DNA from: Sphaerodactylus townsendi
Taxonomy: Eukaryota
Assembly: GCF_021028975.2 (NCBI RefSeq)
Contig: NC_059425.1
Span: 117,242,001 to 117,306,000 of the forward strand
DNA length: 64,000 nucleotides
Direction: 5' to 3'
A program made the position numbers and the translations under genes. The first letter of the stretch is position 1. Every line of letters starts with the position of its first letter. Positions 43 through 53,018 of this stretch are shown one piece after another. Under the pieces are notes generated by a model. It was not told where the DNA came from, made no database searches, and saw only the letters and a program-made list of their open reading frames with translations.

Positions 43-1236
43 ACATAAGAACATAAGAACAAGCCAGCTGGATCAGACCAAAGTCCATCTAGTCCAGCTC
101 TCTGCTACTCGCAGTTGCCCACCAGGTGCCTTTGGGAGCTCACATGTAGGATGTGAACGCAATGGCCTTCTGCGGCTGTTGCTCCAGATCACCTGGTCTG
201 TTAAGGCATTTGCAATCTGAGATCAAGGAGGATCAAGATTGGTAGCCATAAATCGACTTCTCCTCCATAAATCTGTCCAAGCCCCTTTTAAAGCTATCCA
301 GGTTAGTGGCCATCACCACCTCCTGTGGCAGCATATTCCAAACACCAATCACACGTTGCGTGAAGAAGTGTTTCCTTTTATTAGTCCTAATTCTTCCCCC
401 CAGCATTTTCAATGAATGCCCCCTGGTTCTAGTATTGTGAGAAAGAGAGAAAAAATTCTCTCTGTCAGCATTTTCTACCCCATGCATAATTTTGTAGACT
501 TCAATCCTTATCCCCCCCCCCTCAGCCCGCCTCCTCTCCAAACTAAAGAGTCCCAAACGCTGCAGCCTCTCCTCATAGGGAAGGTGCTCCAGTCCCTCAA
601 TCATCCTTGTTGCCCTTCTCTGCACTTTTTCTATCTCCTCAATATCCTTTTTGAGATGCAGCGACCAGAACTGATTACAATTTCCTCCCAAGTGCAATTA
701 GCACCACTGCTTTATATAGGGGCATGACAATCTTTGCAGTTTTATTATCAATTCCTTTTCTAATGATCCCCAGCATAGAGTTTGCCTTTTTCACAGCTGC
801 CATGCATTGAGTTGACATTCCCATGGAACTATCAACTAAGACGCCTAAATCCCTTTCCTGGTCTGTGACTGATAGCACTGACCCCTGTAGCGTGTATGTG
901 AAGCTTGGATTTTTTGCCCCTATGTGCATCACTTTACATTTTGCTACATTGAACTGCATTTGCCATTTCTGAGCCCACTCACCTAATTTATCAAGGTCCG
1001 CTTGGAGCTCTTCACAATCCTTTGTGGTTCTCACCACCCTACATAATTTGGTATCATCTGAAAACTTGGCCACCACGCTACCCACCCCTACTTCCAGGTC
1101 ATTTATGAATAGGTTAAAGAGCACTGGTCCCAAAACGGATCCTTGGGGGACACCACTCCCGACTTCTCTCCATTGTGAGAACTTCCCATTTACACTCACT
1201 CTTTGTTTCCTGTTTCTCAACCAGTTTTGTATCCAG
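43..1236 (-). mobile_element. CR1 LINE, 5'-truncated young copy (ORF2 reverse transcriptase C-terminus, 3' UTR and (TTCTTATG)n tail)
   Basis: Minus-strand ORFs 675-1562 and 233-697 contain CR1 RT motifs (SGVPQGSVLGPVLFNLFINDL, KFSDDTKL, QFWS.HLKKDI..IEKVQRRATRMI). The octamer tail is at 43-60. Confidence 0.95.
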
Positions 1237-1449
1237 TGATCAATCAGTGGAATGTGTTGATGGTCACAGATTTTTCCTACATTACCTGTTTTCCAGAAGT
1301 CCTTTCTGATCCCAGAAAAGTTTATTCCTGGGGTAATTGATTCCCCATAGTTCAAAGGGGGAGAGGATGAAAGTTTGCCTTCTTCATCTTCCATCAGCAC
1401 AGCAGTACATAGTACATAGATGATGGGTCCCACAATCCAGCAATAACAG

Positions 1450-1625
1450 GGATGGGCTTTGCACGCTGAAGGTCCCAGGTCCAATTCTGGTATGTGCAGT
1501 AGAAAGGAACTGGCAGTAGGTGCAATAAAAGGTCTCAGTCTAAGACCCTGGAGAGCCGCCACTCGTCTGAGTAGACAGTACTGACTTTGATGGGCTCATT
1601 TAGCATAAGGCACTTCATGTGTGTG
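1450..1625 (+). mobile_element. tRNA-derived SINE with CR1-like tail (Squam2-like), degenerate
   Basis: B-box-like GGTCCCAGGTCCAATTCTGG, body 'gaccctggagagccgcc...gtagacagtactgactttgatgg'. A related copy lies at 56110-56275. Confidence 0.55.
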
Positions 1626-1871
1626 TTTCTTCCATCTGTGGGTTGCTGGATCTAAAGCAAAGGCTAGACTGTTTTACACCAAGCTATGACCACTGTGTAT
1701 AGCATTGTGAAAAATAAAACACAAAGCTGAGGATAAGCAAACATAAAAAAAACCACAAACTCACTCAGCTGAAACTTGTAAACACTGAAATGTGTACATT
1801 CAGAGTGCAATATCAGGTTCTTGAATAGTGGGAAGCCATTTAGGTTCGTTCCTAATGGGTTTAGGCTACGG

Positions 1872-2016
1872 CCATGGTGGCGAACCTTTGGCACTCCAGA
1901 TGTATGTACTACAATTCCCATCAGCCCCTGCCAGCATTGCCAATTGGCCATGCTGGCAGAGTCTGATGGGAATTATAGTCCATAACAACTGGAGTGCCAA
2001 AGGTTCGCCACCTCTG
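1872..2016. mobile_element. Palindromic hAT-type MITE (~145 bp)
   Basis: Near-perfect foldback TGGTGGCGAACCTTTGGCACTCCAG...CTGGAGTGCCAAAGGTTCGCCA. Imperfect 8-bp TSD ggctacgg/gactgcgg. Confidence 0.85.
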
Positions 2017-2211
2017 GACTGCGGTATGCTTGCTGTGGAAGCAGTAACACATGACATGGAAGTAGACAGGGGAAACCGGCTATAAAGGCTCTTGCTCCCC
2101 TAGCTTTCCACAAACATCAGAATGGAATTATTCAAGAGGGCTTTTTGCATAGATAAATAAGACCCTGTTATAATGAAATGGTCAGAAAGTTTCATTGACA
2201 AAGAGATAGGG

Positions 2212-2304
2212 CAGTGGTGGCGAACCTGTTGTTGGCCATGCTGGCAGGGGCTGATGGGAATTGTAGTCCATGAACATCTGGAGTGCCATAGGTTTGCCAC
2301 CACG
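2212..2304. mobile_element. Internally deleted copy of the same hAT MITE
   Basis: Same termini as 1872-2016. Perfect 8-bp TSD agataggg at 2204-2211 and 2305-2312. Confidence 0.85.
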
Positions 2305-3691
2305 AGATAGGGATTGTGGCCAACAATTACTGTATTGCTACCTGTCATTGTAAATATGCTTCAGAATGTCCCACTAAATGTGTCATGTTTAAAGCTTGTG
2401 CTTTGTTTCAATTCTGTTTGAGATTTCTGTTCTATATTGTATTGTTTATTGGATGCCCCATCATATTGATTACACTTGATCTACATTATGAAATCTTTCT
2501 TGTATCTCAGCAAGAAAGCCAGACTATAAACAGCAACAACAGCAACCAATAACAGCAGCAGTAGCCAACACTATAATTATTCTTTGCATGTCAAGCATGG
2601 AATCTTTGGAAGGGTGGTGGTTGTGCATATAATTGGTACACTAAGCTTGAATATAAAACCACTCACAATCTACACTTTTTTTGTGCTCTTAATACCGTAA
2701 TTCCAACAGCGCTGAAATTTGGCTTGAAAACTGGAAGACTTGTTGCTTTCTCTCCAGGCCAGGTTTCTTTGTACCCCCTTCCACTTGGGGAAATAGTCTC
2801 TTATCTTTTCCAAGTACAGCCACTGCTTATCTTTTGCTTTAAGAAGAGCCCTGCTGAATAGGTCCAGTGGTCCATCTAGTCCAGCATCTTGTCTCACACA
2901 GTGGCCAACCAGTTACTACTGGTTTTGCCAGGTGGCTTGTGGGGACACTATCCTTGCAGAAAGGCAATAGGAAGCTCTGGCCATAGAGTTCCTGGTGATT
3001 CTTAAAGTTACCAAGAAGTGAGAAAGGGTAGTTCTAGGAACTGTCAGAAACTCTGTGGTAATGTTAGAGCTATAGAAGTTCTGTTGGTTCCTAGAGCTTC
3101 CTTTGTCATTTCTGGCTGGCTCAAAAAGTTGCCAGAAATTCTTTAGCCAGAACATCTTGTAAGTAGATGAGGCTTAATTTTTCTTCATGATTTTTCTCCC
3201 CAGAATGATTGTTTCCCCCCTCCATTTGACCCCAATTTCTGTCTACCAACCAGACAAGCAGGGACAGGCAAAGGGCTGCCGTTACTGGAGGTCTTCTGCC
3301 ATAAGCAATGATAATCTGGTACCCAGAATTGTCAGGGCCTGAGAATATATAGTCTTGGTTTCCCAGGTTGCTCTGTGAAGTGCACAGAACTTTGTTTTGC
3401 AAGAGTTCTTCCCTATTAATCTCAGTGGAAAATGAAGATGCACAAAGTGCATCTCTCAGTGCATGCAGAGCTGTCAAACCCACTGGCCTAAAATGTATAT
3501 GTGTTTCATATGCACACCAGAGCTTCTACAAATATCATAACATACTAGTGAACATACCATGGGAATGTACTGTCCATAGTTAATATGCATCCCACCATTA
3601 TAAGCATTCACACTTGAATGAATGAAAGTGGAATCATTAGTAGTGTGTCATAGGTTTCAGATGTTTTTCCTCTCTGTTCCAATTCTAACAG

Positions 3692-3812
3692 GCAGAACCA
3701 GCAAATTAACCTTTTGCACCAGAAGATTAGGGACAATGAATTGCGAGCTCAGCAAGCAAGACTGGGGCACATTGTGAATTGTGAAGACTTTACTTTCATG
3801 AGTAGTTTCCAG
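3692..3812 (+). CDS. CEP85L: CEP85L internal coding exon (first in window): [40 protein letters not shown]
   Basis: Acceptor ttctaacag|G, donor CAG|gtaag, 121 nt. Resembles recalled CEP85L ...[21 protein letters not shown]... Confidence 0.92.
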
Positions 3813-5448
3813 GTAAGATGGAGGCTTGTATTTATGTTTGGCCTGATAAAATCTCGAAAGTGCATGATATCCTGGAAGACAACTTTCGTGCTACTACAGA
3901 CTAGAAGTCATTTCCTGGAAATGTACATTGTGTTTCAATAAATGCAGTAGAATCTTTTGTCTTCTACATTGTTTTAGACTGTTGTTAAATCAAATAATAT
4001 TGACACATTCTCATTTCCACATAGTCTCTTTCGTCAGTTCTGGCCCCCAATTGCTTTTTGGTTTATCCCCTGATTTTTTTTCTTTTTTTCTTGTTTTTCT
4101 CCTAGGGTTTTTCCAGCTCTTCTGAAACCACTTTTACCTCAGTCTTTTTCTGGAAGCTAATTTTGACTCAGCTTTTTCCTAGCCTGTGTGTTTTTATTAG
4201 GTTTTTTGTCTCACCAATCTGGAGATTTGAATGTTGTTGTCATTAAACTACTTTTCCACCAAGACCACCTGTCTTTCATTTTTTTAAAGACCCTAAAATA
4301 TCAATATATCACTGTAGTGTTGTAATGATAGTTTAAGCAGGGTCTCAGAAATCCCATTTCATTTTTTAAAAAAGACTCTAGCCTGCTTCCCTCAGTGAGG
4401 TATACCCATCTCCTTTTATCTCCACAAGGTGAAGGGCTGGGGACTTATTTTTTTTACATAAAAGCTGGGAATTCAGAGAATCTGCTTAAGCTTTCTTGAC
4501 AACAACAAAGTGATGTATCAATAGTTTAGGTCTTTTATTTAACAAATAAAGGCCTGCTTTGATAACACTAATAACACCAATGATGACAGCATCATCCCTT
4601 GAAAATCCTAATCTTACTAATCTAACAAAAAAAGTTACCTGAGAATAAGTATCAAGCAACAAAACATGTGTTAAAAATGTCAGGACTTGGAGTCTGTTGC
4701 TTCATAGCAATCATTCTGCTGAAACTTCAAGTTAATATTTTTGTTAGGTTTTGTCTGACTGGGACATGCATTCTGGCTGGATATGTAAAAATACCTTTGT
4801 GGGAAAACTAGGGTGAATCGTTCAAGCATAGCTTAATCCTAAATGGGGTACTTTTCTAAGAATATTGAAGGCATTCAGATAGACAGTGCCCAGTTTTCTG
4901 TCTGATGCAATACAAGCTCAGTTTACCATGACACCTTAATCACTGTCAAGACTAATAATCTCAGTCCCTCAGATGCCATGAAGTGGGTTCTCTCCAGGCA
5001 GACATTTATATTTGAGTTACAAAAAAATAATCCAACAGCAGAGTTAAGTCTTTGAAATACAGGAAAGCAGACTGAGCTGTCATTTGGCTCTCCTGGAGCT
5101 CATGTGCCTCCAAATAAAGTGAAGTATATGAATTCAACATTCTGCCTCATTGCAGAAGACCATTTTAACTACATTTTGTCAACCTCAACTGTTTTCTGCC
5201 TGAATAGATTGTAAAATTGTATAGAATCTGTTCTTCTATAATCTGGAATATAAAGTTGTTTGTGTGTATGTTAATCTGATTCTGTGCCTTAATTGTTGTA
5301 AGGTCATATGTCAGCAAAAATGTAATCCATTTATCACCTATATCTGCCCCGGTTACTATGTCTAAGAATGCATGTTGCATTATTTGCTGCTAAAGTGTTT
5401 GCTAGGCTTGGATACTAGTTAAAAACCAGATACCACTCTTTGTGTATG

Positions 5449-5810
5449 CCACAGGTTCCCAATATAGTGCCTACAGGTGCCATAGTACCAAAGGACACCT
5501 TTTCTGCCCCCCCCCCACCCATTTTGGGAAATGGTTTGGGCCAGGTATGTTTTAGTTCTATAAGGCTTCTGACTGATTACTGGAGATTTCATTGGGTGTG
5601 CAGATTAGTTAAAATAATTGCTTTGACAGCAGCTGCCACCACAGCACAAGGATCTATACTGTATTGCTGAACTTAAGCTGTGACAATCATTTGTGGCTGG
5701 CTCTGTCTTCTGTGGAAGCCATTTTGTGGCAGCTAGTTTGTTGTTGTGCCCACCATGTGACATCAGAATTCCAAATGTGCCTGCAGACTCAAAAAGGCTG
5801 AGGACACCTG
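5449..5810. mobile_element. Old hAT-like non-autonomous element
   Basis: Degenerate TIR-like ends (caggttcccaa ... aaggctgaggacacctg). Confidence 0.4.
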
Positions 5811-5993
5811 GAGAATGCTATAACCAGTGACAGTATGTTTCTTACTATTTGTTTCTGCTTTTTCATGTCTATATACAACATAGACTACCTTATTCCAAAC
5901 GTTACAAGAGAGAAAGTCTACCTTAGGAAACCCATTCTGGATGTGTGAGTATAATACTAGTAGCCTATTTATTGCCTCCATTTTCTTTCAAAG

Positions 5994-6176
5994 CATCCTC
6001 AGTATGAGAAGACACCAGTGCAGCCTCAGTTTGCCGAAAGATCTGTGCCTCATTGTGAAAGGGAAGAGCTGGAACGAAAGCTTGCATCAGTACAGAGTAA
6101 GGAACTGCAGCTCAGCGAGTTCCTCAAACAAATAGCAAACAAATCCAATGAAGACAAGAAGAAGATGGAAGAGAAG
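5994..6176 (+). CDS. CEP85L: CEP85L coding exon: HPQYEKTPVQPQFAERSVPHCEREELERKLASVQSKELQLSEFLKQIANKSNEDKKKMEEK
   Basis: Polypyrimidine tract with aag| acceptor, donor AAG|gtggg, 183 nt, phase 0-0, coiled-coil composition. Confidence 0.88.
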
Positions 6177-7044
6177 GTGGGTTTCTCATTGAGCTTTCTA
6201 AGAGAACTTTATTGATGTGATGGAAGATGTTATGGATCAAATAGCATCATGGTTCAAATATCATGTAAAACCATTAATTAAACTAGTTGTTGTTAATGTA
6301 ATTGTTCCAATGTGAGCCAGTCCACTAGCTGTGGTTGCTTGATTAGGATACATAATACCTTGGTTTTGCATTACATCGCAACTGTTCTGAGTTCAGGCAT
6401 AACATAGTATCCCAGCTGGTATCCTGGGCTGCACTGTTCTGAGGACAGCACTGGGGAACAAACCAGAATGAACCAAGGTGTCTGTATTCATATATCACAT
6501 GAAATTATGGTACAATTAACTGATGGTGCTTCTTCAAATGATTTTTGAGCCCAGTCATCAAGAGATGATGGGTCATTCACTCAACTGATCCTATCCTATT
6601 CAGCTGGCACTGTGCAAAATCTTCCATTCTCTGGAGAAGTTTAAATTACCGCCTCTCATCCAGGGCTTTTAACCAGTCCTTGGGATTTTGGTCTCTTGTA
6701 AATTGTCAGTCAATCAGAGCCCATGAAACTTCACTGGATGGGAAGGAGTGAGCCAGCTTCAGCTTAGATGGGGGACATTTTTCTTGTGGAGGGGATTTTG
6801 TGGCACTGAAACGGAGTGTCAGTTTAGCAAGGCTTTTATTTGGCTTTCAGAGTTTGGGGGTTGGCTTAGGGAAGAAGGCTTATTATAGTGTTACAAATAA
6901 GCATCCTGTTAAGGGCCCAGCATTCCAACTGGTATATGTAGGTTCTGTAGAAAGATATTCTGTGTGGGAAAAGAGCAGCTTTGGACCTGCTGAGGTAACT
7001 TGACAAGGGGTGGTGGTGGATCACAAGTCCCTTCAGGGTTTATT

Positions 7045-7176
7045 NNNNNNNNNNNNNNNNNNNNNNNNNNNNNNNNNNNNNNNNNNNNNNNNNNNNNNNN
7101 NNNNNNNNNNNNNNNNNNNNNNNNNNNNNNNNNNNNNNNNNNNNNNNNNNNNNNNNNNNNNNNNNNNNNNNNNNNN
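7045..7176. other. Assembly gap (132 N)
   Basis: Run of N. Confidence 1.
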
Positions 7177-7646
7177 TTATTAGATACTTTATTTTCTGTT
7201 AAATAAATTTTGTTATTCATCTCCAACTGTGACTTGACTGTTGGCTTCAATTTTTTGCAAAGCTGAAAGGACAGCTAAATTTTTTTAAAAAATCACTTGG
7301 ATTCAATTGTTTTCAATCCTACACCAGTAGAAAGCTAATAATCATAACTATTAGTGTGCTTTAAATAATAATTCCGTGATCTCTAAACTGCTGGTTTAAA
7401 CAAAGTGAAAGCATCCATGTGTTCAACTACACTAGAAGTGTCTTTCCATAGAAATGGTAAGCAAGAAATCTTAGTATCAAGAAAAATAAATACAATATCT
7501 CCATGTTTATTTTTTAATAACAATGAAATAATACTTGTATGGTATTGTGGAACTGGTATTGTGAAAATGAAATATCTTTGTTCAAATTACCTTGTGCATA
7601 TATGTTTCTTGTCTCACGTAATAAAACATTTTTATTCTTTTTCTAG

Positions 7647-7811
<165 letters not shown>

Positions 7812-8217
7812 TGAGGTATACATAAGTCAGAAGAAAGAGTTTTTGCTGGGTACTTATTATAAACCACCATATGTAATGTTTGCACATGCTGTACTCTGGT
7901 AAAATTTTAATAAGGGCATAATCCCCTGAAAATGCCACTGCATAAGCCCCTAGAAATGAAACAGAAATGAAACAATGGCGCTCACACAGTGGAGGATTTC
8001 CAGTGGATTGTGCTCAAAGTTATTTATTTTTAAAAGCTTTAAATATGGTACACTGCCTATTCCGTGGGTCGAAAGCTCCTTCTGCTGGAGGAAAGCTTTT
8101 CTGCCAGCAGAACAGAACCATTGGTGCAACCCAGAGGGTTTAACTATTGCTGTTTCTCAAACTTAAAATACGCCATTTTTGAGATGGGCTATTTAAAAGG
8201 CTACAATTATTTGATTA

Positions 8218-9083
8218 CCATATATACTCATGTATAAGTCGAATTTTTCAGCACATTTTTAATGCTGAAAAAGCTCCCCTCGACTTATATGCGGGTCATT
8301 AAAATTTTGTGTGTGTTTTTACTTTGCTGGCCAGAAGTTTTTATGCTAGAGGCACCAAAATTTCAGGGTACCCTCAGAAGACTCTCCTGATGAGACCAGC
8401 CAAGTTTGGTAAAGTTTGGTTTAGGGGGTCCAAAGTTATGGACCCCCAAAGGAGGTGCCTCCATTCCCCATTGTTTTCAATGGAAGCTATTAGTAGATGG
8501 GGCTACCCTTTTGAGGGTCCATAACTTTGGACCCTCTGAACCAAACTTCACCAAACCTGGCTGGTCTCATCAGGAGAGTCTCTTTATGATACCAGCCAGG
8601 TTTGGTGAAGTTTGGGTCAGGGGATCCAAAGTTATTGACCCCCAAAGGGGATGCCCCATCCCCCATTGTTTACAATGGAAGCTAACAGTAGATTTTTCAT
8701 TTCTGATAACATCCCTCTTAAAATCTAAGTTGGGTTACATTTGGACATACAGATGATGATGAGGAATCCAGTTTTGGAAGATTTTAACTCTTGTGTTTTA
8801 GCTTGGTTGCTTGTTGAGCTAAGTTTTTTGTACTTTTAAAGTTATTGTTGATACCATATTGTTCTTGTTGACCCCCTCTTTTCCACTTACAGAGCCAGTT
8901 TACTGTTTTTCTTTGAAATAAATATTCAAAAACATTTAACCTAGTGATGCCTCAATTGATGCTGCATTTCCCACCCTTGACTTATACGCGAGTCAATAAG
9001 TTTTCCCAGTTTTTTGTGGTAAAATTAGGTTACCTCTCGACTTATATGTAGGAATTAGAGCTTATACTGCCGAGTATATACGG
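8218..9083. mobile_element. Tc1/mariner-superfamily (Tc2/pogo-like) non-autonomous element with internal repeat module
   Basis: TIRs CC(A/G)TATATACTC...GAGTATATACGG flanked by TA on both sides. Subterminal CGACTTATA repeats. Confidence 0.8.
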
Positions 9084-9284
9084 TAATTGACCTGACAAAT
9101 ATTAGTTATTTTTAAAACATTTATTAGAAAAAACAAAATGTGCTTTAATTACCAAAAGGTTTCTTATTTATGCTCTTTACAAAAGCAAATTAGTTAACTG
9201 TTATTGTGAAAAACATGAAATGAATTTTTTTAATTCTTCAGCGAATTATTACATCCTTTAGCAAGGCTAGGGAAGGTTACATTA

Positions 9285-9520
9285 TGTTCTTATGTAGTTT
9301 TGAAATACTTCTCAAGGGAAGCCCCATGTAGAGCACATTGCAATAATCTAATCTAGATTTAACTATGGCATGCACCACAATGGCCAGATCTTTTCTGCCA
9401 AGGAAAGGCCGCAGCTGACTAACCAACTGAAGCTGGTAAAAGGCACTCCTGTCCACAGCTGCTACCTGCTTAAACAGCAGTAGGCCTTACCCAAGAGCAC
9501 TCTCAGATTACCCATTGTGA
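9285..9520 (-). mobile_element. L2 LINE RT fragment
   Basis: The minus strand reads SAFYQLQLVSQLRPFL...VVHAIVKSRLDYCNVLYMGLPL. Confidence 0.75.
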
Positions 9521-9783
9521 ACGCTTCTCTTTTACCAATGGTAAGATTTCCTAGGCATGTTACTTTAGATTATTATATAACGATTACTTTATGGCTATAT
9601 GGTCCCACTCCCACCATTCTGCTGGGAACCGTTTCCAAGCCCAGTGGAACAGTGGGCATCCCAGCACAAATCATAATCTGCCTTGGTTACTCTCAAGGGA
9701 CCTTTTAAGTACACTGTCTTCTTCACTGCCTCATTCCCTATGCTTAGCTTGCCTCAGTAGATATGTATTTTGCTGTTGTATAG

Positions 9784-9938
9784 TTGCAGGTTCTAGAAGA
9801 AAAGAACAAGCAACTGCAAGCTACCGTGGCTGAGCTAGAGAAGGCCCTTGAAGAATCCAGAACACAATGTACAGAGAAAGAATTGCAGCTTGTGAGTCAG
9901 AAAAAGAAAGAAAAAGAATTGGTAACTTCAGTACAGAG
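9784..9938 (+). CDS. CEP85L: CEP85L coding exon: [51 protein letters not shown](S)
   Basis: Acceptor gtatag|, donor AG|gtatga, 155 nt, phase 0-2. Confidence 0.93.
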
Positions 9939-10044
9939 GTATGAATATCTTAATTGATCACCAATTCAAGACCATTATTCTGAACAGGATATTTGAAACA
10001 ATGCAGTTCTGTGTCTCTCTAGTGACAATGCGGTTCAAGTGGTT

Positions 10045-10848
10045 CAGTCACAGACCAGGAAAGGGATTTGGGTATCTTAGTTGATAGTTCCATGGGAATG
10101 TGAACTCAATGCATGGCAGCTGTGAAAAAGGCAAACTCCATGCTGGGGATAATTAGGAAAGGAATGGATAATAAAACTGCAAAGATTTTTGTGCCCTTAT
10201 ATAAAGCAGTGGTGCGACCGTGCTTGGAGTACTGTGTTCAGTTCTGGTCGCCACATCTCAAAAAGGATATCGAAGAGATAGAAAAAGTGCAGAGAAGGGC
10301 AACGAGGATGATTGAGGGATTGGAGCACCTTCCTGGAGTGGCTGGAGCATTTGGGACTCTTTAGTTTGGAGAGGAGATGTCTGAGGGGAATATGATTGAA
10401 GTCTATAAAATTATGCATGGGGTAGAAAATGTTGACAGAGGAAAAAAAATTCTCTCTCACAATACTAGAACCAGGGGGCATTCATTGAAAATGCTGGGGG
10501 AAAGAATTAGGACTAATAAAAGGAAACATTTCTTCATGCAATGTGTGATTGGTGTTAGGAATATGCTGCCACAGGAGGTGGTGATGGCCACTAACCTGGA
10601 TAGCTTTAAAAGGGGCTTGGACAGATTTATGGAGAAGTCGATTTATGGCTACCAATCTTGATCCTCCTTGATCTGAGATTGCAAATGCCTTAACAGTCCA
10701 GGTGCTCGGGAGCAGCAGCAGCAGAAGGCATTGCTTTCACATCCTGCATGTGAGCTCCCAGAGGCACCTGGTGGGCCACTGCGAGTAGCAGAGAGCTGGA
10801 CTAGATGGACTCTGGTCTGATCCAGCTGGCTCTTTCTTAGTTCTTATG
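10045..10848 (+). mobile_element. CR1 LINE, 5'-truncated young copy; same subfamily as 43-1236, opposite orientation
   Basis: ORFs 10113-10364 and 10377-10661 encode the CR1 RT C-terminus. The tail is ttcttagttcttatg. Confidence 0.95.
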
Positions 10849-12367
10849 AAATATGGTGGAGTTCTTCAGACACCTGAAGGGCTGTCACTTGGAAGAGGGC
10901 AAAGACTTCTTTGATGCTACAGAGATGCTACCACCAAGTTTTATACACAGTGGCAACTGCTGTATTCTTTTTCAGATTTGCTAGTGGAATTGCACTCAGC
11001 AACCATACAAGCATCTGCTATTACTTCCATGGTAATGAGAGCAATTAGAAGGCATTTGCAGTGAAACCTTTTATCTCCTCTTTCCTCCTCTTCTGTTTTC
11101 TTTGGCTTATCAATGCATACCAGCTGACACATCCTGAATAGGAAGTTTTGCAGTAGCTGCCATGCCACCTATGTTTAAAATAACATTCGGAACAGTCCTC
11201 TTACTGGTGCTCACCTTAATGATGCAGGCTAGCAGGTGAGAGGAGGGAATGATACAGACTGGCATAGGGAAGGAGGGCAGATGATATATGAGTAGTCAAC
11301 CAGCTTTGGGTGTAGCACTAGGATAGCCCATTGGCAAATTTAGTTGGTGATCACTGTGCTGAAGAATTCATTTCTGGTTACTGGTAGAAGTTGTGTTCTA
11401 GTAGCTGGATGTTACAAATGGTTCTCTGGGATCTGAATTCAAGATCTTATTTAGCAGTTAAGCTGTTAAATGAATCCAATCACAGCAACCTAGCTCTCTA
11501 ACAGTAAAATAGAATAGTCGTAAGCTTTTGTCACAGTGGGAGCGGAAGGAAATACATAAGAAGGACTGCAGTTTGCAAAATAGAAATGATATGGCAGTTA
11601 TTAAAATACATGCAGGATTATTCCTTTGTATGTTTGTAATGAAGCAGGTGAACATGATAGAGAGGCTTTAGCTATGTACGGTGTGTGCTTTCTGTGTACA
11701 TACATAATTACAAGGGAATAAAAAGTTGGAAGATTGAAGTTGAACACTAGATGTTAGAATCAGAATGTCGTTAAAGAATAACTTCTTTTGGATTATGCTT
11801 TTAGTAGTTTTAGGGTAAAGTTCTAAAGAAACACAAAATTATTCAAAATTATGCAATAAAACAAAAGTGGGGGCAGAGTTTTATTTCCAGTGGTATAAAA
11901 AGGGTGGCTTATCACTTTGTGACCCTCTGTTATTGAAAAGTACATACCACAAACACTTTGCCCAGACGATGAAAGGTTAGGTATTTGGGACAGTTGGCCA
12001 AATCACTGAGTGCATTGTTTCCATCTTACTTCTGGTGGCTGTTGTATGTATGAGTGTATAATGTACCCAGCTGGCATTGTGCTGTTCTAAAAGTCTATAG
12101 ATACTTGAAGCAAAGTCTTGTTTCTAAATTTAAATGACAATTGTCATTGTCATAATTTGGTTTTATATTTGATGGTTGACGGATGTGAGGGCAAGTAAGT
12201 GCGTGTGTGTGTTTTCTTTTTTGTTTTGGGACTCTTGTATATCATTGATGGTGTAGATTAGAAGTTGAGCTGCAGAGGTTTGTAAGACAAACTAAACCAA
12301 TGAACATTAAAAAGACATGAACGACAGTTTGTGGAGGGGAGGGATAGTGCTTGCTGACTTTCACTAT

Positions 12368-12795
12368 GGCCGTTTCCGCACGGCCCATAAACGACGGCCT
12401 GGGGGCGGTAAAAACGCCGCCCCCAGGCCGCCGTTCGCACAGGCGCCGCTGCTGCAACGCAGCAGCGGCGACCTGAATGCGCTTCCCTCCCCCCAGGGCG
12501 GCGTCAGGCCGCCCTAAACAACAACCCTTTAAAGGGTTGTTGTTGGGGAGGAAGCGTCTTCGGGTGAAGAGCAGGGGTCGGAGGGCAGCGTGGGCGGGGC
12601 TCCGACGGCCAGCAGGCGACGACGAGGACATCGTGAGTAGAATGGAGGAGAACGCGAGTAGAGGCGGCTCAGTGCGTGTAGAACGCCTCTCCTGCGGCGG
12701 CCTCCAGCAGCCTGCTTCTGCACGCTTGACGCCATACCCACGCCGCCAGCACTCTTGGCAGCGTGGGGGCGCAAGGAGGCCGTGCGGAAACGGCC
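12368..12795. mobile_element. GC/CpG-rich PIF/Harbinger-like MITE
   Basis: Perfect 18-bp TIR GGCCGTTTCCGCACGGCC/GGCCGTGCGGAAACGGCC, 3-bp flanks TAT/TAC, internal palindrome AACAACCCTTTAAAGGGTTGTT. Confidence 0.85.
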
Positions 12796-13757
12796 TACGT
12801 GTTACGATTTTACAAGTGCCTGCTTCATTCAGTCAAGCAAGAGTTAAATGTTGAAATCTCATGCCTAGAATCACATGAGCTTCTGGAAAGATCTCTCCTT
12901 TCTTCTTCCAGTGAAAAGCAGAGAGACAGACACAGACAGACTGCACAGATACCCAAACTGGGCACTTGCATAGATAGTTTTCTGTTCCTATGTTTAGTGT
13001 AAATTCATTTGTTATCTAGTAAATGTCTACAAAACAGCTCACTTGCATCTGTCCTATTATTTACTCTGCTCATTCATTGCCATACCAACACTAGGCCACA
13101 TGGATATGGACAACATAAGCTTGAAGTCACCTTGGACTTTTAGATGTAATGGTTCTTATTTAGTCATGTTACTGCTTTGCAAAATAAGTATATAGAAAGT
13201 TTTAGGTGACAAAAATAGACATTTCCAAATACGGAAAATCATGTCAAATACTGATCCTTAAAAACACATTTTAAAAGCAGCTACTTCCACTTGAAGAGAG
13301 GACATTCTGAGACGTCTGGAGACTCCTTAAGATCTCTGGAGGCAAAAAGTAGGTCTTGTTCCACCTCCAGTGGGAAGGAAATGCCCACCATCTTCAGTTT
13401 TTTTTATTCCTGCTCTGATTTTTCTCTCTCCTTGAGTTCTTAGGTTGCTTCTTCTTTTTTTTAGTGTCTCCCCCCTTTCTTTACCTCTGAGCCATAAAAA
13501 ATACTTCTCTCCATTTCCCCATTTTTCTGCTTTTTTTGGCAGGAGCTCCTTCAAGTGAAATAAAATGCAGAGATTGGAGCCTGAGAAAAAATGGGGGAAG
13601 GGGCAGGCCCTTTCTGGGACTTGTGGCCTTTGAAGGAGGACTCACTGAGGCCAGGCCTGATAGCCACCACAAGGCAACTTGATACCACAATTTAGCTTGC
13701 AAAACTCACCCAGAACTAGCTGTTTGCTAGGATTTAATAGCAGCGACTCCATGAAGA

Positions 13758-15811: not shown

Positions 15812-15929
15812 TCTGCAACAGAAAGTAGAGAAATGCCTGGAAGATGGTGTACGCCTTCCTATGTTGGACACAAAACAACTTCAGAGTGAAAATGAAAGCC
15901 TCAAAGAGAAACATGAGAAAGCCAGCAAG
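15812..15929 (+). CDS. CEP85L: CEP85L coding exon: [39 protein letters not shown]
   Basis: Acceptor ctgcag|T, donor AAG|gtcagt, 118 nt, phase 2-0. Carries the CLEDG.RLPMLD motif. Confidence 0.95.
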
Positions 15930-15979
15930 GTCAGTGCATTAAATGAATTAGATGGTCGCTTTAATAACATTATTACAGG

Positions 15980-17470
15980 CAAATGAAGTTCAGTGTTGGT
16001 AAGTGTAAGGTGGTACACATTGGAACAAAAAAATTCACCCAGCTTCAAGTATATGCTAATAGGGTCTGAACTTGCTGAGACTGAGGGGAAAAATCTTGTA
16101 GTAGATAGTTCAATGAAAGTGTCAATTCAGTGTGCTGCAGTGGTTAAAAAAAAGGCAATCATTATGCTGGGAATTATTAGGAAAGGGACTGAAAATAAAA
16201 TAGCTGATATTATAATGCTCCTGTATAGATCTATGGCTCAGCTTCATTTGGAATACTGTGTGCCATACTGGTCACTATATCTCAAAAAGGATATCGCATT
16301 GTTGGGAAAGGTACAGAGGCGGGCAAACAAAATGATTGACAAGGTGGAGTACCTTCCTTGGGAGGATAGACTGAGGAGTCTGAGATTTTTCAGTTCAGAA
16401 AAAACAACAACAAAAAGATGTGATGGAGGTTTTTTATATTAAATATGTGATAGGGAGAGTTAATAGTGATCTTTTGTGCACAACGCGAATGAAATGCATT
16501 TTGGGGAGGAAGTTTGGACAGCTTTTTCCTCAGGGGTTTTTGAGAACGCTAAATGAGCAATCTTTTTCCCCAGGACAGCTTGAAGACGTTTCCTGCTTGC
16601 TGTATGAAGATCAGGAAACATTTTATTTTTCCTGCCCAAGTTTAAAGCTCTCAATTGCAGTATCTCTGCAGCTTGTGCCCGGCATTTTCTGCTGCTAACA
16701 GGATCCTCCATGCAGCCCACCATTTGCTGAAAGGTCTCCCACGACTGTTTGCTTTGCTTGCGTCACAGCTGGCCACTATTTCAGCTTGTAAAGTATTTAT
16801 TTTATTTATTTATTGTATTTATAAACCGCCCTCCCCCGAAGGGCTCATGAATAAACTTAGTTTTCCCTGCTAATGATGTGCTCATGTCGGGTTTTTCCCC
16901 CCCAAAATTGTTTTCAATTATGTGTCTTTGTGGCTTGAAAAAAAAAGGAAAAACAAACACATCATCAGCAGGGAAAATTAAATGTATTCATGTACTTTAT
17001 AAACTGAAATAACTGCTGACTGCAATATAAGCAAAGGAAAGAGCCCTGGGAAACCTTTCAGCAAATGGCGGGCTGCATGGAGGATCTCTGAAGTGGAAAA
17101 AATAAAGCACTGGCAGTGCTTTATTTTTCCACGTTATCCGAACAAAACAAAGTAAAAAATAGTACTTTTTAAAACATCTGCAAGACATTTTATTTGTGCT
17201 TTGCAGGAAAGACCAAAGAGACCTACTTTTCCATCTCTCAAAATGCTACAACTCAAGGGCATCCAACGAAGCTTATGGGCAGTAGTTTCTTTATACAGTG
17301 AATGATTAAAATGGGGAATGGCCACAGGCATAGCCAACTTTAGAAGGGGATTAGACAGATTAATGGAAGGTAGGTTTATTAGTAACTATTAGCTGTGTTG
17401 ACTAAGAGGAAATCCCACATTCAGAGGCAGTAAACCTCTGAATGCCAGTTCCAGAGGGGGCAAAATCGGG
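15980..17470 (+). mobile_element. Older CR1 LINE interrupted by a foldback insertion (~16465-17215)
   Basis: ORF 15993-16442 has CR1 RT motifs (HLEYCV.YWS.YLKKDI..L.KVQRRA). CR1 3' sequence resumes near 17220 (tttagaaggggattagacagattaatggaagg). Confidence 0.8.
16465..17215. mobile_element. Large palindromic (foldback) non-autonomous element, unclassified
   Basis: Arms ~16700-16880 and ~16957-17087 are reverse complements. Related sequence lies at 45590-46080 and 60830-60990. Confidence 0.65.
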
Positions 17471-19832: not shown

Positions 19833-19987
19833 CAGACCAGGGGCTGGGGAGCAGCAGCAGCAGAAGGCCATTGCTTTCACATCCTGCATGTGAGCTCCCA
19901 AAGGCATCTGGTGGGCCACTGCAAGTAGCAGAGTGCTGGACTAGATGTACTCTGGTCTGATCCAGCAGGCTCTTTCTTATGTTCTTT
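19833..19987 (+). mobile_element. CR1 3'-end fragment of the young subfamily
   Basis: Closely matches 10694-10848, including the ttcttatgttctt tail. Confidence 0.9.
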
Positions 19988-40150: not shown

Positions 40151-41660
40151 TTTTTTTTAAAAAAAGTTAAAGCTACCCTTAAGTTATCCTCTTTTATGTC
40201 CAGTTTTAGCAGTAACAGGGAAAACCACAATGGCTTTGAAAAAATTGAACAGTGGAGAAATTTCTAGGACATGTAGATAATAGCAGAGATCTAACAACCT
40301 TCATGTGCAAGCAGAAACACCATGATGTACACACACAACACTAACTGATTGCCCTTTGGACCTTCACCAGTGATTTTACAAGAAACTGAGCATCATCACC
40401 TTTCATTGTAGTTATCACTGAAAAGTAGTTACAAAATTGCTCTGAAAGAGTAAACATCTTAGTTTGGATACGATCTGAAAGAAAATCCCTCATGAAGAGT
40501 CTTTTTAAAATCAAATTTGGCACGAGGAGGAAGATTCTGGCATGCCTCTTGCCTGTCTTCAATTTTATCCCCACTGATTAAGGGGGGGGGGAGGAATGAG
40601 ACTAAATCCATACTGAATTAATCTGCTGGTGAAATAGTCTTGGACCCATACAAAAATGCAGCTGCATTTAAGTCAATTCATTTTATACATACTTCTACTG
40701 ACAAAGGAATTCTTGAATCTGAGAACTGTATGGATTATGCCTTTCAGAAACAATTTCTTCCAGAAGGTGTCACCAGAACACAACCAATGCTTAGGAGCTA
40801 CTCTTGTAGTAAATACTGGTAATCAAAAGATTGAAAATTATAGGTTTTTTAAAAAGCCTCTAAAGACAACATAAAGTACTTCTGAGTGTTATGTTAAAGC
40901 TGTTGTTAATTAAAGCCAAGAACAAGACCTTGGGTCAGTCCAGCAAGACTTTTGGCATATTAATTGAACTGAGAATGCAAAAAGACTGCCTGCTGCCTGT
41001 GCCCTTGTGAAACATTTAGAAAAACCTTTGTTACTAAAAACAAATACAGATTATTGTTTCAAACCATACTCCACTGCAGTCAATGATGCAAGACTTGGCA
41101 TAACAGCAAACCCCATTGAAGTCTATGGTGGAAAAAACAATTTTTCCCACCATAGAACTTGCTAAAGAGAGCTGGGAGGTTCTGTGAAACCAATGGGGAA
41201 TTTCTGGGAAAGGGCTATGGGGTGCACATTTTTCACGGTAGAGGCACATAACCTTCAGAGCATCTTCAGGAGACTCTCCTGATGTACCCTCAAAAGGGTA
41301 ACACCAATTTCCTGTTGACTCACATCGCAAACAATAGAGGACGAGGCAACCATTTTGAGGGTCCATAACATTCCCTCCCTGACCCAAACTTTACCAAACA
41401 CAGAGGGCATCATCAGGATATTCCCTGAACCATACCATGAAATTTTGGTGCACCTATCTTTAAAAATGCGCTACCTGCAGGCCGAAATGTGAAAAGCCAC
41501 CAAATAATACAAAAAATTCAAACGGACCCAATTTTTTCGGATACACCAGAATATTCGGGCATATCCGAATATGTTATTTGTCTTATTTGGGCATACAGAT
41601 AATTTTATGGCTGAATAATTCTGAATTTTACCCAATTTTTAGGGTATTTATCAAGCAGAG

Positions 41661-48254: not shown

Positions 48255-49490
48255 CAAAGAAGTAGCTAGGGAAAATGGAGCGTAGGGCATAATCTGAGTT
48301 TTCCACCCCCCACCTCGCCTCACCCCCGTATGAGTGGCCACCTTCCCCCATCATGACCAAACAAAGTTTTTTTGCAACAGGTCATCTCAAAGTCACCATC
48401 ACATTATAGAACATGCCCTAACTCACAAATCTGGGTAAAAGCCGGATCCAGAGGATTTTAAACAGATTCTCATGAATTTATATGATTTTTCCATTGAAAT
48501 GAAATGAAACCACCATGAAACTATAGAACATGTCTTAGTCTACAGGCAGCACCAAAACAATCACACATCCCGCGCTCTGTGGCACCGCAGTGGTGCAAAA
48601 AGCTGCTTGGAAAACATGGATTCTCATGATTTTTGCACTTGGACACCTCAAAATCACCAGCACATCACAGCTCATGCCCCTGGCAACATGTCTGAAGACA
48701 ACGATCAAACAGCCAATGCTCTGTGGCACTGCAGTGGCACAAAAACCTGCTTGGAAACACATATTCTCAAGGATCCTCATGAGTTTTGCACTAAGTCACC
48801 CCTAAAACACCAGCACATCACAGCTAAAGCCCCTGGTTAAATGTTTGAACACAACAATCATGTGTCCCATGCTCTGTGGTGCCACAGTGGCTCAAAAATA
48901 TGCTTGAAAAAAAAGGGTGGCAGGGGGTGGCTAGAGGTGGGGGGAAGTGGCAATGAGTGGTGGGAGGGAAGGCCTCTGCCAGGCCTCTGTGGGCTCTGCT
49001 GGCCTTTGAGTATGGCATGGGAGGAAGGGAAGGCCTCTGCCGGGCCCTCGCAGGCCCAACTGACCCAACTGGCCTTTTGCCATGGCATGGGGGGAATGGA
49101 AGGCCTCTGCCAGGCCCCGCTGGCCTTTTGGCATGATGTGGGGGAAAGGGAAGGCCTCTGCTGGGCCCCTGCAACCCCCACTGGCTTTTTGGCATAGCAT
49201 GGGGGGAGGGACCAGGCCGTGCCCCACCCCCATGCCCCACTTATCTTAGGCAGTGCAGTGGCAGTCTCGGGCAGCCTGGTGGGGCCGGCCCAGGCCTAGC
49301 AGTGCTAAGGGGCACCAGATTGCAGCGCCATCAGGCTGCTATTTCAGCAGCAGTCTGGAGGGGCCAAGCCGGGCTGAGTGGGGAAGGAGGAGGTGTGTAT
49401 GTGGGGGGTGATTTTTCACCCCCACGTGGCCCAATGGCAGCATGCCTGGGGTGTTTGTCCCCACCTGGCCCTGTTATAGCTATGCCTCTG
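48255..49490. mobile_element. Non-autonomous hAT element with internal tandem arrays
   Basis: Termini CAAAGAAGTAGCTA / TAGCTATGCCTCTG, 8-bp TSD attgccac/attgccat. About 2.4 units of ~145 bp (48550-48910) and 4 units of ~55-60 bp (48965-49205). Confidence 0.75.
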
Positions 49491-49655
49491 ATTGCCATTA
49501 TAGTGGCCTTTGGAATACACATTCCTTTGTTCCATCCTAATTCTAGTCAGACAAGATTTGCAACTTTCTGAAGCACTACAAAAGTTGTTTAGCTGGAGTC
49601 AGTTGAGGATACAATGGAAGAGATGATGGTGAACTCATAGTCTGAATCTCCCTTA

Positions 49656-49935
49656 GGCCGTTTCCGCGCGGCCCTTTTATGGCGCCCTGGGGACGGCAAA
49701 AACCCCTGGAGGTCGGAGGGCAGCGTGGGCGGGGCTTCGGAGGCCAGCAGGCCGACGACGGGGACAAGGTGAGTGGGACAGGGAAGGGGGCAGAGGCGGC
49801 TCCATGCGGAGCCGCCTGTCGTCCGCCGGCCTCTCCTGCGGCCGCTCGCACGCTTGCGTGCAAACGGCCTCCGCCCCCACGCCGGCAGAATTCTTGCCGG
49901 TGTGGGGGCGCCTGGGGGGCCATGCGGAAACGGCC
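49656..49935. mobile_element. PIF/Harbinger-like MITE, same family as 12368-12795
   Basis: TIR GGCCGTTTCCGC/GCGGAAACGGCC with perfect TTA TSD. Confidence 0.88.
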
Positions 49936-50044
49936 TTAGAAAACTAAAATCTCTCTACAGCTTCAGTCACACACACTCACTAGAAAACACCAGCTTTGTT
50001 AATGGTAAGATCACTCCCATGATCCTAAGGGGCAGTTATGAGAA

Positions 50045-50145
50045 TGTGTATGCATGTATGTGTATGCATAGTGTGTATGTATATGTGTATGTAAGTATAT
50101 GTATAGTGTACGTGTGTGTATGTGTATGTGTGTGTGTATGTATAG
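50045..50145. repeat. Imperfect (TG/TA)n microsatellite
   Basis: Seen directly. Confidence 0.9.
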
Positions 50146-53018
50146 TGAAGGTTTGTTTTAAACAAGGCTCCAACAGGGACAAAATAAAATCCAGGCAGAA
50201 GACAGCTGGCATCTAAAGAGGACTGACTCAAACATTAACCTCATAATTCCTCCTCACACCCTTAGTGAAATACAAGCTGCAGAACAATGGATCACCTGCC
50301 AGAAACTACTTATCTCATCATGACTGATGTAATTTCCTCTCTCTGAAAATATCTCTTGAATAGAGCTGATACTAACATACCCCTTGCAACAGTCATCATT
50401 TAATAAGGACCATCAATATTTTGCCTCACCTTGAAACCATTTTCGAAGGAATTGGATTCGGATGTAGCTGCTTAATGTGTTTTTTCACTAAGACCAAAGA
50501 CCACTATTCAGAAGTCTCTGGGAACATGCAGCACACTCTGATACTCTCAACAACCCATTGTTTTAATGAGGCATGCTCATCATCATTGCCTCCGGAGACA
50601 TTTCATCCTATAAGGTACAAAATAAACTTCACACATCATCTTTCTTCCTGAGTCAATATGTGCCAGTTGTGCATTGCTCTCTGTCCTTGGTCCTCTGGAC
50701 AGGGAACGTATCACGTAAACCAATTCCCTTTCTGTAACCCTCAGTCTACTCTTTATTCTCTTAGGCTCTATGTGCAACACTCTGTAATATCACTTCCTTC
50801 TCAATAAAATTCCTTATGATTTTCCTTGTTATTTCTGGGTCTAAACTCTTAACAAAGGTTCTTGATATACATTGGTGGAGCATAACAATTATAAAATACT
50901 TCATTCTCTGTACTTCCCTCCCATGTTCCAGCAATTTGAGGTATAAAGTTACCTTGCACGAAAATGCATTGTTCAAGCCATTTTATGTGAATCTTATTTG
51001 CACTTGTCTACCTGTTTTTGTTCCCTGTACTTCTGTCTCTCACTCCTTCTGGAGAGAATGTTGTCAGAAATAAGAGGTGTAAGCTAGAAATTCTTCCTAG
51101 GAAAGCCACCTCAATTCCAACCATGGTTCCATCTTAATTTTTTTTATTATAAACATCACAGTCTGTTAGATTATTTAATTTAAAGAATTTGTGTTGATGT
51201 TATTAATTTACATGAACTCGGCTGCAAAAATTAATGGTTCTAGGAATTTGGAGAATGTAGTTTTAAATTATTTGGAATGGATCTGAACAGCATTGTTACA
51301 AGGGGAAGCTAATGCTAGTTGAAAAGGGGAGTTACTTAATTGGTAGCATCCACTAATTTACACTTTTCTTGTTTTCTTTCCCAGTTTTTAGCAGAACAGA
51401 TTGTGCTGAGACTGTGTGGCCCGAAACACTGTCTTTATCCAGAAAATTGTTATTTTGGTTTCCAACAAGAGCAAAATAAGAATAAAGGTTAATTTAGTCT
51501 ATAAGACTAATAAAATAATAATAAAATGTCAAAAGAGACTTGTCAAAACAAAAAGAAATATATTGGGAGAGAGATCACATTAAATTATGTTCTGGAAAAG
51601 AGTGTTGATATGAAGGCTTGGATCCAGTGCAGCTTTTTCATAGGCAGAACCGTGGAGGGTGATTTTCTTATCCTCTCCTTTTCTACTGCAGCACAAAATG
51701 CCTCCCCAAATGCTAATCCTGGGGAACAAATAACCATTTCAGGGTCATTTTGACCTGCAGTAGGAGACAGAAGAGAAGAAAGTTGCTTCCTTCACTCAGC
51801 AAAATTTTCAGAATGTTATTGGGTCACGGATGAAGATATCAGCTCTTTTCCATTTCTGTCTTCATGAATGTCAAACTTTATTCCAGACTCCAGTACAAAC
51901 CCCATTTAATTCCTTCCACATGATCAGTTATTTGATATAAGCGCTTCTTGTAGCTGCTTGAGGCACTGGGTCCTTACTATTCAAGGATGTGACCACATGA
52001 AATAGCATGATTTATACCTCATCTGTTGGTGGTCTGTCTGCACTGAAGATTTATGGGAATTTGTTTGGGACAAGTTGCCAGTGGGCTACAACTCATACTA
52101 TGAAGAGGAAACAAATTTCCCTTCTTCAGGGGAATGACAAAAGCAAACCAAGTTCACATATCCCTACTGACCCAGAAAAAACCACACATTAGTATAGGAC
52201 TTCTAATGACAACTTCTAATGCTAAAACAACCAGTGATACAAATGTACCACAAATACAGGTCATACCCTAGTGCTTCATGTGCACTCCTAAATGCCTCAC
52301 AGAGCTCTTGTTCACAAAGAGCTTTCATAGTCACATGAATGTTGACTCAAGCTACACATGGGCTTTTTTTTAAAGATACAGAATTTCTGTTGCATTGAAA
52401 CTAATGAAGAATGTATTATGAGAAGAAGAGTTTAATGCATGCAGTGGAGCTCCTGTCCTTAGAAAGATTACACGATTGAGGTGCAGTGTTGACCAAAAGT
52501 ACACACAAGTGAGCTAACCGGCAGGACAGGCATGTTTAGAGCTTTGGGTTAGAAATTCCAAACCTCAATTGCAGGGTCACTTAACAGAAGTGTTTTTTTC
52601 CAGTCTTCCTCCAGTGGCCTTTCAACGTTGAAAGCTGATACAAGGGCTGGAGAAGGCACTTGGAGTAGATGCTATGAGGCCAAGGGGGATGTGGAGTCAT
52701 TGCCCTATGCGCCTTTCTTACTGCAGCCACTACCTTTCTCCTTGGCATTTTATCCATTAGGCTTTTTTGACTCCCCAAATCTGTTTTTGATCTTAAAATG
52801 CTGCTGATAGAAGGGGAACCCAGCAAAGAACTGTATCTGCTACTACCTTTTATTTCTTGTTCATAAGATCCAAGGCACTATGCAAAAAAAAAGTGTTAGA
52901 ATACGGTCATAAAATTCTAGACACTACTGTGTCAGAATATAGAGGGAGTATATTTGTAATATTTGAATGTTCTACACATCAAAAACCCTCCTTCATGTAG
53001 AAATCTAGCACACTATAG

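Follow-up and report, generated by a model that had tools for sequence, protein, structure and literature searches.

A likely chance pair of inverted CR1 copies around exons 5-8 of gecko CEP85L, with the potential for pre-mRNA pairing and some circular RNA

The window analysed here is a stretch of 64,000 nt of Sphaerodactylus townsendi (GCF_021028975.2, NC_059425.1:117,242,001-117,306,000, forward strand), from whose sequence a 13-exon CEP85L model yields the 794-aa RefSeq protein exactly. On the plus strand, exon 5 (3692..3812, 121 nt, phase 2 to 0), the prospective back-splice acceptor, is followed by exon 6 (5994..6176, 183 nt) and exon 7 (7647..7799, 153 nt), both phase 0 to 0, and by exon 8 (9784..9938, 155 nt, phase 0 to 2), the prospective back-splice donor. 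Exon 9 (15812..15929, 118 nt, plus strand, phase 2 to 0) would provide the acceptor if exons 5-8 were skipped in frame. Introns 4 (15,819 nt) and 8 (5,873 nt) adjoin this block and carry one CR1 copy each, so that the two copies do bracket the four exons, as the initial annotation had it, from the immediately flanking introns. All eight splice sites of exons 5-8 are canonical AG/GT, including the ends of the block, where AG precedes 3692 and GT follows 9938, and the three RefSeq isoforms all retain these exons. The sole Pfam domain marked in CEP85L is CC4 (residues 602-681), and residues 374-577 are presumably coiled coil. A hidden coding exon beneath the run of N at 7045-7176 is unnecessary, because the model reproduces the protein without one, and an inversion of the enclosed segment is ruled out by the collinearity of 13/13 exons on the plus strand. 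Exon 7 shows holes and low depth in the contigs of three of four sequencing runs; these records are filtered, and hence we do not regard this as a finding, nor can summed contig depth across CR1 serve as copy number.

The upstream copy (43..1236) is a 5'-truncated CR1 LINE on the minus strand, antisense in intron 4, with its pairing arm at 44-872. It contains the end of ORF2 with a piece of the reverse transcriptase (Pfam RVT_1, E 7.7e-14), the 3' UTR and a short tandem tail (43-60). The downstream copy (10045..10848), likewise 5'-truncated, lies in sense orientation on the plus strand of intron 8 and starts 107 nt past the exon 8 donor, exactly the distance noted before. It begins beyond the reverse transcriptase part, its two ORF pieces are without Pfam match, and it was identified through its DNA likeness to the upstream copy. 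Tails are present, and the family is dispersed with a common 3' end, the position of which is common to most of 21 young copies; that this family is CR1, rather than another LINE clade, we assume in line with the initial annotation. No target-site duplication of at least 5 nt was found at the upstream copy, and the downstream copy has one badly placed 5-mer; in the CR1 clade such duplications are often short or absent. Both junctions of the downstream copy are present in contigs of four out of four runs from one study, with unique flanks entering at both ends, which rules out an assembly artefact. These runs include a second organism (B) that has diverged by ~1% and carries this copy too, which is therefore tolerated. 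Further downstream, an old CR1 fragment in intron 9 (15978..16395, plus strand, 66% to the upstream copy) is a weak alternative partner bracketing exons 5-9, and a short CR1 3' end in intron 10 (19833..19986, plus strand, 154 nt, 89% to the upstream copy) is another, bracketing exons 5-10, a block that is not stop-free.

The complementarity of ~800 nt claimed for the two copies was recovered by blastn, which aligns 44-872 with 10848-10044 over 830 columns at 89.5% identity with 26 gap columns, or at 91.3% over the 805 ungapped columns. Ungapped pieces are 91-96% identical, and one of 172 nt at 93% agrees with the ~93% previously obtained by hand over 195 nt. Perfect complementary runs reach 73 nt, and the duplex is predicted at -1410 kcal/mol. 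The arms are separated by 9,172 nt, with 2.8 kb between the upstream one and the acceptor of exon 5, and no same-family competitor was found inside intron 4 or intron 8. In the 1.254 Mb sampled, this is the strongest inverted pair: of 624 inverted matches, no other reaches 700 nt with its arms no more than 50 kb apart, and the duplex is therefore a good candidate. Within CEP85L, 17 of the 23 inverted pairs of at least 100 nt bracket exons, in nine different blocks. CircRNAs formed by intron pairing are expected to have reverse-complementary sequences in both flanking introns (here 4 and 8) and an exon block bounded by a canonical acceptor and a canonical donor; both features are found here, and the analogy with inverted Alu pairs drawn earlier is right. 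Judging from the sequence, the two copies are likely to pair in the pre-mRNA, and this known layout could give some circular RNA.

Calling the two copies members of the same subfamily was loose: they are complementary and 91.3% identical over ungapped columns, but a tree of 14 copies places them on separate branches. The 90 other pairs among these 14 copies have a median identity of 92.6% versus 91.3% for the pair described here, with 62% being as alike or more. Closer relatives elsewhere (best 97.4% and 95.6%) rule out a local inverted duplication or gene conversion, and the copies are likely to be independent insertions. Neither unusually similar arms nor pairing-keeping changes, the marks of a selected RNA structure, were found in a comparison of low power: mismatches show no wobble-preserving bias (25 G-U-keeping versus 18 A-C, p=0.36, from 43 transitions in one pair). 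As such, the pair appears to be without sign of selection, by a test that is weak. Genome-wide, the CR1 family numbers at least 3,978 first-look candidates, the 40 best genome matches are 95-96% identical and spread over many contigs, and 21 copies at 84% or more occur in 1.254 Mb. A Poisson estimate, which is based on eight copies and assumes random placement, puts the number of inverted pairs that 700-nt copies form at distances of up to 10 kb at ~370 (68-1,430) for the genome. The chance for a single locus (introns 4 and 8) is ~0.002-0.003, yet hundreds are expected per genome, and the pair is likely to be a chance arrangement.

The frame arithmetic put forward for a circle of these exons was recomputed and is correct. 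Exons 5-8 total 612 nt and run from phase 2 to 2, the doubled block has one frame without stop, and in-frame ATGs lie at 3798 in exon 5 (weak context) and at 6165 in exon 6 (strong context, A at -3 and G at +4). Such a circle would thus combine a length that is a multiple of three, a stopless frame and a start codon, as expected for rolling-circle translation. A hexamer reported to be IRES-like precedes ATG 6165, and AAGAAG occurs twice in the circle. The stop-free frame follows from the exon phases and not from the repeats: 25 of 66 internal exon blocks of CEP85L are stop-free as circles, as are, in the available part of PMC9242994, ~14% of catalogued human circRNAs. Skipping of exons 5-8 likewise stays in frame, with Arg as the junction codon and CC4 kept.

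We favour, at a probability of roughly 0.6, the reading that a chance CR1 pair leads to an edited pre-mRNA duplex and a low-level by-product circle. Two truncated copies of an abundant element would have inserted independently and in opposite orientation into introns 4 and 8, and their arms would pair as a duplex of ~800 bp that attracts A-to-I editing. A little exon 5-8 circle may be back-spliced as a by-product, likely without selected function, and the product of rolling-circle translation, if any, is likely to be scarce and subject to degradation. In the accessible portions of the respective papers, the repeat edited most in chicken is CR1, owing to the 3' end that its copies have in common (PMC5625713), circRNAs flanked by young repeat dimers are mostly judged mis-splicing noise (PMC8516420), and rapid degradation is described for some rolling-circle products (PMC9242994). 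The strong context of ATG 6165 and the IRES-like hexamer before it speak against a by-product, as do the tolerance of the downstream copy in organism B, the standing of the pair as the sole one of its length in the sample and the short distance of its arm to the donor, owing to which the effect could exceed background. Conversely, the pair could be silent if co-transcriptional splicing removes introns 4-8 ahead of the synthesis of the downstream arm, leaving no duplex, editing or circle above background. Editing drops as the distance between inverted repeats grows, and the wide spacing of the arms, the remoteness of the upstream one from exon 5, the eight canonical splice sites and the retention of exons 5-8 in all RefSeq isoforms agree with such silence. 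We nevertheless hold it to be rather unlikely, as it has to contend with a long and strong predicted duplex for which no same-family competitor was found in either intron.

Stronger outcomes are less probable. A splicing switch, in which a sizeable share of transcripts would go to the circle and to a 590-aa isoform lacking residues ~374-577, with CEP85L activity lowered or modified in the gecko lineage, fits the in-frame Arg junction and the retained C-terminal CC4. In lissencephaly patients, exon 2 is skipped in frame in ~10% of transcripts (PMC8391275, available part), and CEP85L may therefore be dose-sensitive; however, that sensitivity argues that strong skipping would be purged. The skipped isoform is absent from the three RefSeq isoforms, and no skipped form occurs among 222 proteins, 135 of which span the region, a search that is weak because it used the best 120 of 714 matches and a deleted form would rank low. 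We consider such a switch improbable. Even less credible is rolling-circle translation yielding a concatemer whose unit is the central segment of 204 residues and which would function at the centrosome, a reading that would need four putative steps in succession. The stop-free native frame, its two in-frame ATGs and the AAGAAG motifs would permit it, and rolling-circle translation is reported for human circles and chicken circRUNX2.2, largely from vectors in the accessible text (PMC9242994, PMC11545863). Stop-free frames are common in this gene, however, and a coding sequence as rich in Lys and Glu as this one (40% A) should contain AAGAAG in any case. A protein of permuted order was found in 0 of the 222 (best 120 of 714 matches), and the searchable supplementary files of the study on human circRNA peptides (PMC9242994) contain no match to CEP85L/C6orf204. 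We also give very little credence to the full proposal that a lineage-gained CR1 pair made an abundant circCEP85L of exons 5-8, translated repeatedly from ATG 6165, along with the 590-aa skipped isoform. What survives of the original reading is its anatomy, its frame and a strong predicted duplex, but the frame follows exon phases and the pair shows no sign of selection.

If the by-product reading holds and the pair is ordinary, a few hundred long inverted CR1 pairs like it are estimated to exist in the genome, and its value is that of a test locus, a long and clean LINE duplex free of same-family competitors found in the flanking introns, for the question of whether CR1 in squamates is equivalent to Alu in primates. 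If instead the circle were abundant and translated, two insertions would have created a new protein form in CEP85L, splice variants of which cause lissencephaly in human, and a brain-development gene of a squamate would encode a lineage-specific protein that owes its existence to a transposon.

There are published precedents for back-splicing driven by repeats, for the editing of CR1, for circles assisted by CR1 in chicken and for translation by rolling circle. A search of the literature outside subscription papers found no gecko or squamate circCEP85L, and CEP85L has no match in 12 small supplementary files of PMC8516420, which are not its full circRNA lists. The circRNAs with dimers of Alu, B1, ID and other repeats in that study resemble the gecko case in having young, species-specific repeats in opposite orientation in both flanking introns, and in host genes that are long and low in GC with canonical exons. 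They differ in that their repeats are SINEs, while the 800-nt arm in the gecko is part of a truncated CR1 LINE. In human, the same host gene yields circles (hsa_circ_0077736; PMC5567231, PMC12463802, bioRxiv 10.1101/2022.01.26.477946), described in the accessible text as a miRNA sponge; the likeness seen is that of the host gene, the exons not being stated in the passages available, and the human circle does not owe its formation to the gecko CR1 pair. The human circPSAP, circPFAS and circABHD12 (PMC9242994) and chicken circRUNX2.2 (PMC11545863) share the multiple-of-three length, the stopless host frame and the internal ATG, but for these, in the parts available, there are reads across the junction as well as data from peptides or reporters, whereas the putative gecko circle is read from the genome. 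Inverted CR1 hyper-editing in chicken (PMC5625713) likewise involves two 3'-end CR1 fragments per pre-mRNA in SINE-like pairing, although the massively edited LINE that the available text names for lizard is Penelope. For chicken circRNAs with reverse-complementary matches over CR1 (PMC12658333), CR1-assisted circularisation was already reported. These have the same repeat class and the same proposed route of intron pairing, and deletion of the matches is said, in the part of that paper available, to lower circle formation; the gecko pair concerns a different gene and is known from sequence alone.

A model of 13 CEP85L exons, built with 200 kb of DNA upstream of the window, gives an exact translation of the 794-aa isoform, one of three RefSeq isoforms (799, 794 and 780 aa) whose differences are confined to the N-terminus. 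By this model, the four exons between the CR1 copies are exons 5-8 (3692-3812, 5994-6176, 7647-7799 and 9784-9938), the second of which matches Sphaerodactylus townsendi CEP85L at 100%, and the end of exon 4 lies 12.1 kb short of the window's start. The initial annotation had these exons flanked by an inverted CR1 pair, which we can confirm: in a self-comparison of the window, 44-872 matches 10044-10848 inversely over 830 columns (89.5% identity including 26 gap columns, 91.3% over 805 ungapped columns). The minus-strand copy (43-1236), which holds a reverse transcriptase remnant, lies in intron 4 (15,819 nt) and the plus-strand copy (10045-10848) in intron 8 (5,873 nt), both directly flanking the block, and no competing copies of the CR1 family were found within either intron. 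The predicted duplex energy is -1410 kcal/mol, versus -511 to -575 for pairs around exons 3 and 4. The CR1 pair is real, unusually long and in the right introns. Intron 6 contains a 132-N run (7045-7176), without which the gene model is complete. An ORF of 52 codons, located in intron 3 some 28.7 kb before the window starts (minus strand, 1231-1389 of the upstream stretch L003) and encoding a hydrophobic C-terminus, is presumably phospholamban (PLN), nested antisense in CEP85L like in mammals. CEP85L splice variants cause posterior lissencephaly, according to the excerpt consulted (PMC8391275).

Exons 5-8 add up to 612 nt with phase 2 at each end, and the doubled sequence forms one stop-free frame with in-frame ATGs at 3798 and 6165. 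An mRNA that skips the block would also stay in frame and, by the gene model, encode 590 aa. The frame arithmetic proposed initially, for a stop-free circle with ATG 3798 and for a frame-keeping loss of 204 aa, is accurate. In exon 6, another AG in the same frame lies nine bases 3' of the annotated acceptor (5994 and 6003); splicing to it would cost three residues and leave the frame of the circle intact. An endless frame arises in any block of coding exons whose two ends have the same phase, and 25 of the 66 internal exon blocks of CEP85L are stop-free as circles. For human catalogued circRNAs, an excerpt of PMC9242994 gives ~14% as readable by rolling circle in the host frame, and describes rapid proteasomal degradation of some such products. 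Given that intron positions are generally conserved, we infer that the exon phases are older than the CR1 insertions. The endless frame adds little.

Pairs were counted in five blocks totalling 1,253,868 bases, where among 624 inverted matches the focal pair is the only one of at least 700 nt within 50 kb, and seven inverted pairs reach at least 300 nt at 85% within 25 kb. The block on the window's own contig (454 kb) was centred on the focal pair; that on another contig, C4, was picked at round coordinates after the genome search for CR1 copies, and includes one of its top-40 copies. This search gave 3,978 first-look candidates, which is a minimum figure. The sample holds 21 CR1 copies at 84% identity or more, ten of them at least 700 nt long, and the eight besides the two focal ones extrapolate to ~11,500 long copies per genome (5,000-22,800). 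Assuming random placement, the genome should contain ~370 inverted pairs (68-1,430) no more than 10 kb apart. If 38% of blocks are stop-free and 10-40% of the pairs are taken to bracket coding exons, one expects 13-55 loci at which an inverted pair encloses a stop-free block. Young neighbouring copies within 30 kb form eight same-oriented and three opposite pairs, too few to show depletion; the upstream focal copy takes part in two of these three.

Among 14 CR1 copies, the 90 other pairs have a median identity of 92.6%, above that of the focal pair (91.3%), and 62% of them equal or exceed the focal pair in likeness. Since each focal copy has closer relatives elsewhere and the two sit on different branches, they probably inserted independently and at different times, without conversion. 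The downstream copy also occurs beyond the assembled animal, as contigs cross from unique flank into both its ends in all four runs compared, including a second organism that differs at ~1% of sites.

Across CEP85L, 17 of 23 inverted pairs bracket exons, in nine blocks, and inverted repeats of other families likewise enclose exon 3, exon 4 and exons 4-7. A SINE-sized repeat (270-310 nt) has four copies, 90-96% alike, in introns 2-4, at distances of ~51.1, 40.0, 17.8 and 9.2 kb from the window on its upstream side (stretches L006, L004, L002 and L001); these make up inverted pairs around exon 3 and around exon 4, neither of which alone is phase-symmetric. The high-copy element at 8207-9090 in intron 7, likely a non-autonomous DNA transposon, carries internal inverted repeats (8353-8459/8501-8607 and 8496-8577/8579-8660) and is related to 41245-41465 and 61142-61197; it could fold locally within the predicted loop, and has an inverted partner at 80% in intron 3. 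A family of short MITE-like palindromic repeats occurs at 1875-2017, 2232-2302 and 61858-61949, with a perfect-looking hairpin at 1903-1984, and the copies in intron 4 are a possible local editing substrate. GC-rich stretches lie at 12350-12800 and 48550-50200, the latter with tandem-like repeats (48556-49207); they are partially alike (12576-12796 and 49711-49936, 74%).

How, then, should this arrangement be read? With a probability of about 0.62, we favour a chance pair: two CR1 copies would have inserted independently in opposite orientation, their arms would form a long pre-mRNA duplex while intron 4 remains unspliced, ADAR would edit this duplex, and back-splicing from 9938 to 3692 would affect a minor fraction of the transcripts, without any selected role. 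No squamate circCEP85L was found in the literature searched. Among 222 fetched proteins, 135 of which span the region, there is no CEP85L protein with exons 5-8 deleted or permuted, a weak negative given that one search behind it covered the best 120 of 714 hits. That the pair is simply silent is unlikely, if the most plausible of the alternatives. Of 43 transitions between the arms, 25 would still allow G-U pairing in the pre-mRNA, versus 18 that leave an A-C mismatch (p=0.36, low power), and neither this test nor identity among the 14 copies gives evidence of selection on the pair. We consider it improbable that the pair is a real splicing switch. We give very little credence to a functional rolling-circle protein from the exons 5-8 circle. 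One point favours translation: ATG 6165 is preceded by A at -3 and followed by G at +4, and stands directly after a hexamer found to drive initiation, per the same excerpt of PMC9242994, yet that hexamer is expected anyway in an exon that is 40% A and Lys/Glu-rich.

The layout has parallels in known systems, as far as the excerpts consulted go. Human CEP85L circles have been reported (PMC5567231, PMC12463802, bioRxiv 10.1101/2022.01.26.477946), and dimers of young repeats in the adjoining introns drive circles that are species-specific and, in the authors' judgement, mostly mis-splicing noise (PMC8516420). In chicken, a circle with rolling-circle translation is described (PMC11545863), CR1 is the main hyper-edited repeat because its truncated copies have a common 3' end (PMC5625713), and reverse-complementary matches overlapping CR1 assist circularisation, according to a review (PMC12658333). 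Exons 5-8 of CEP85L make a fair candidate locus of an already known kind.
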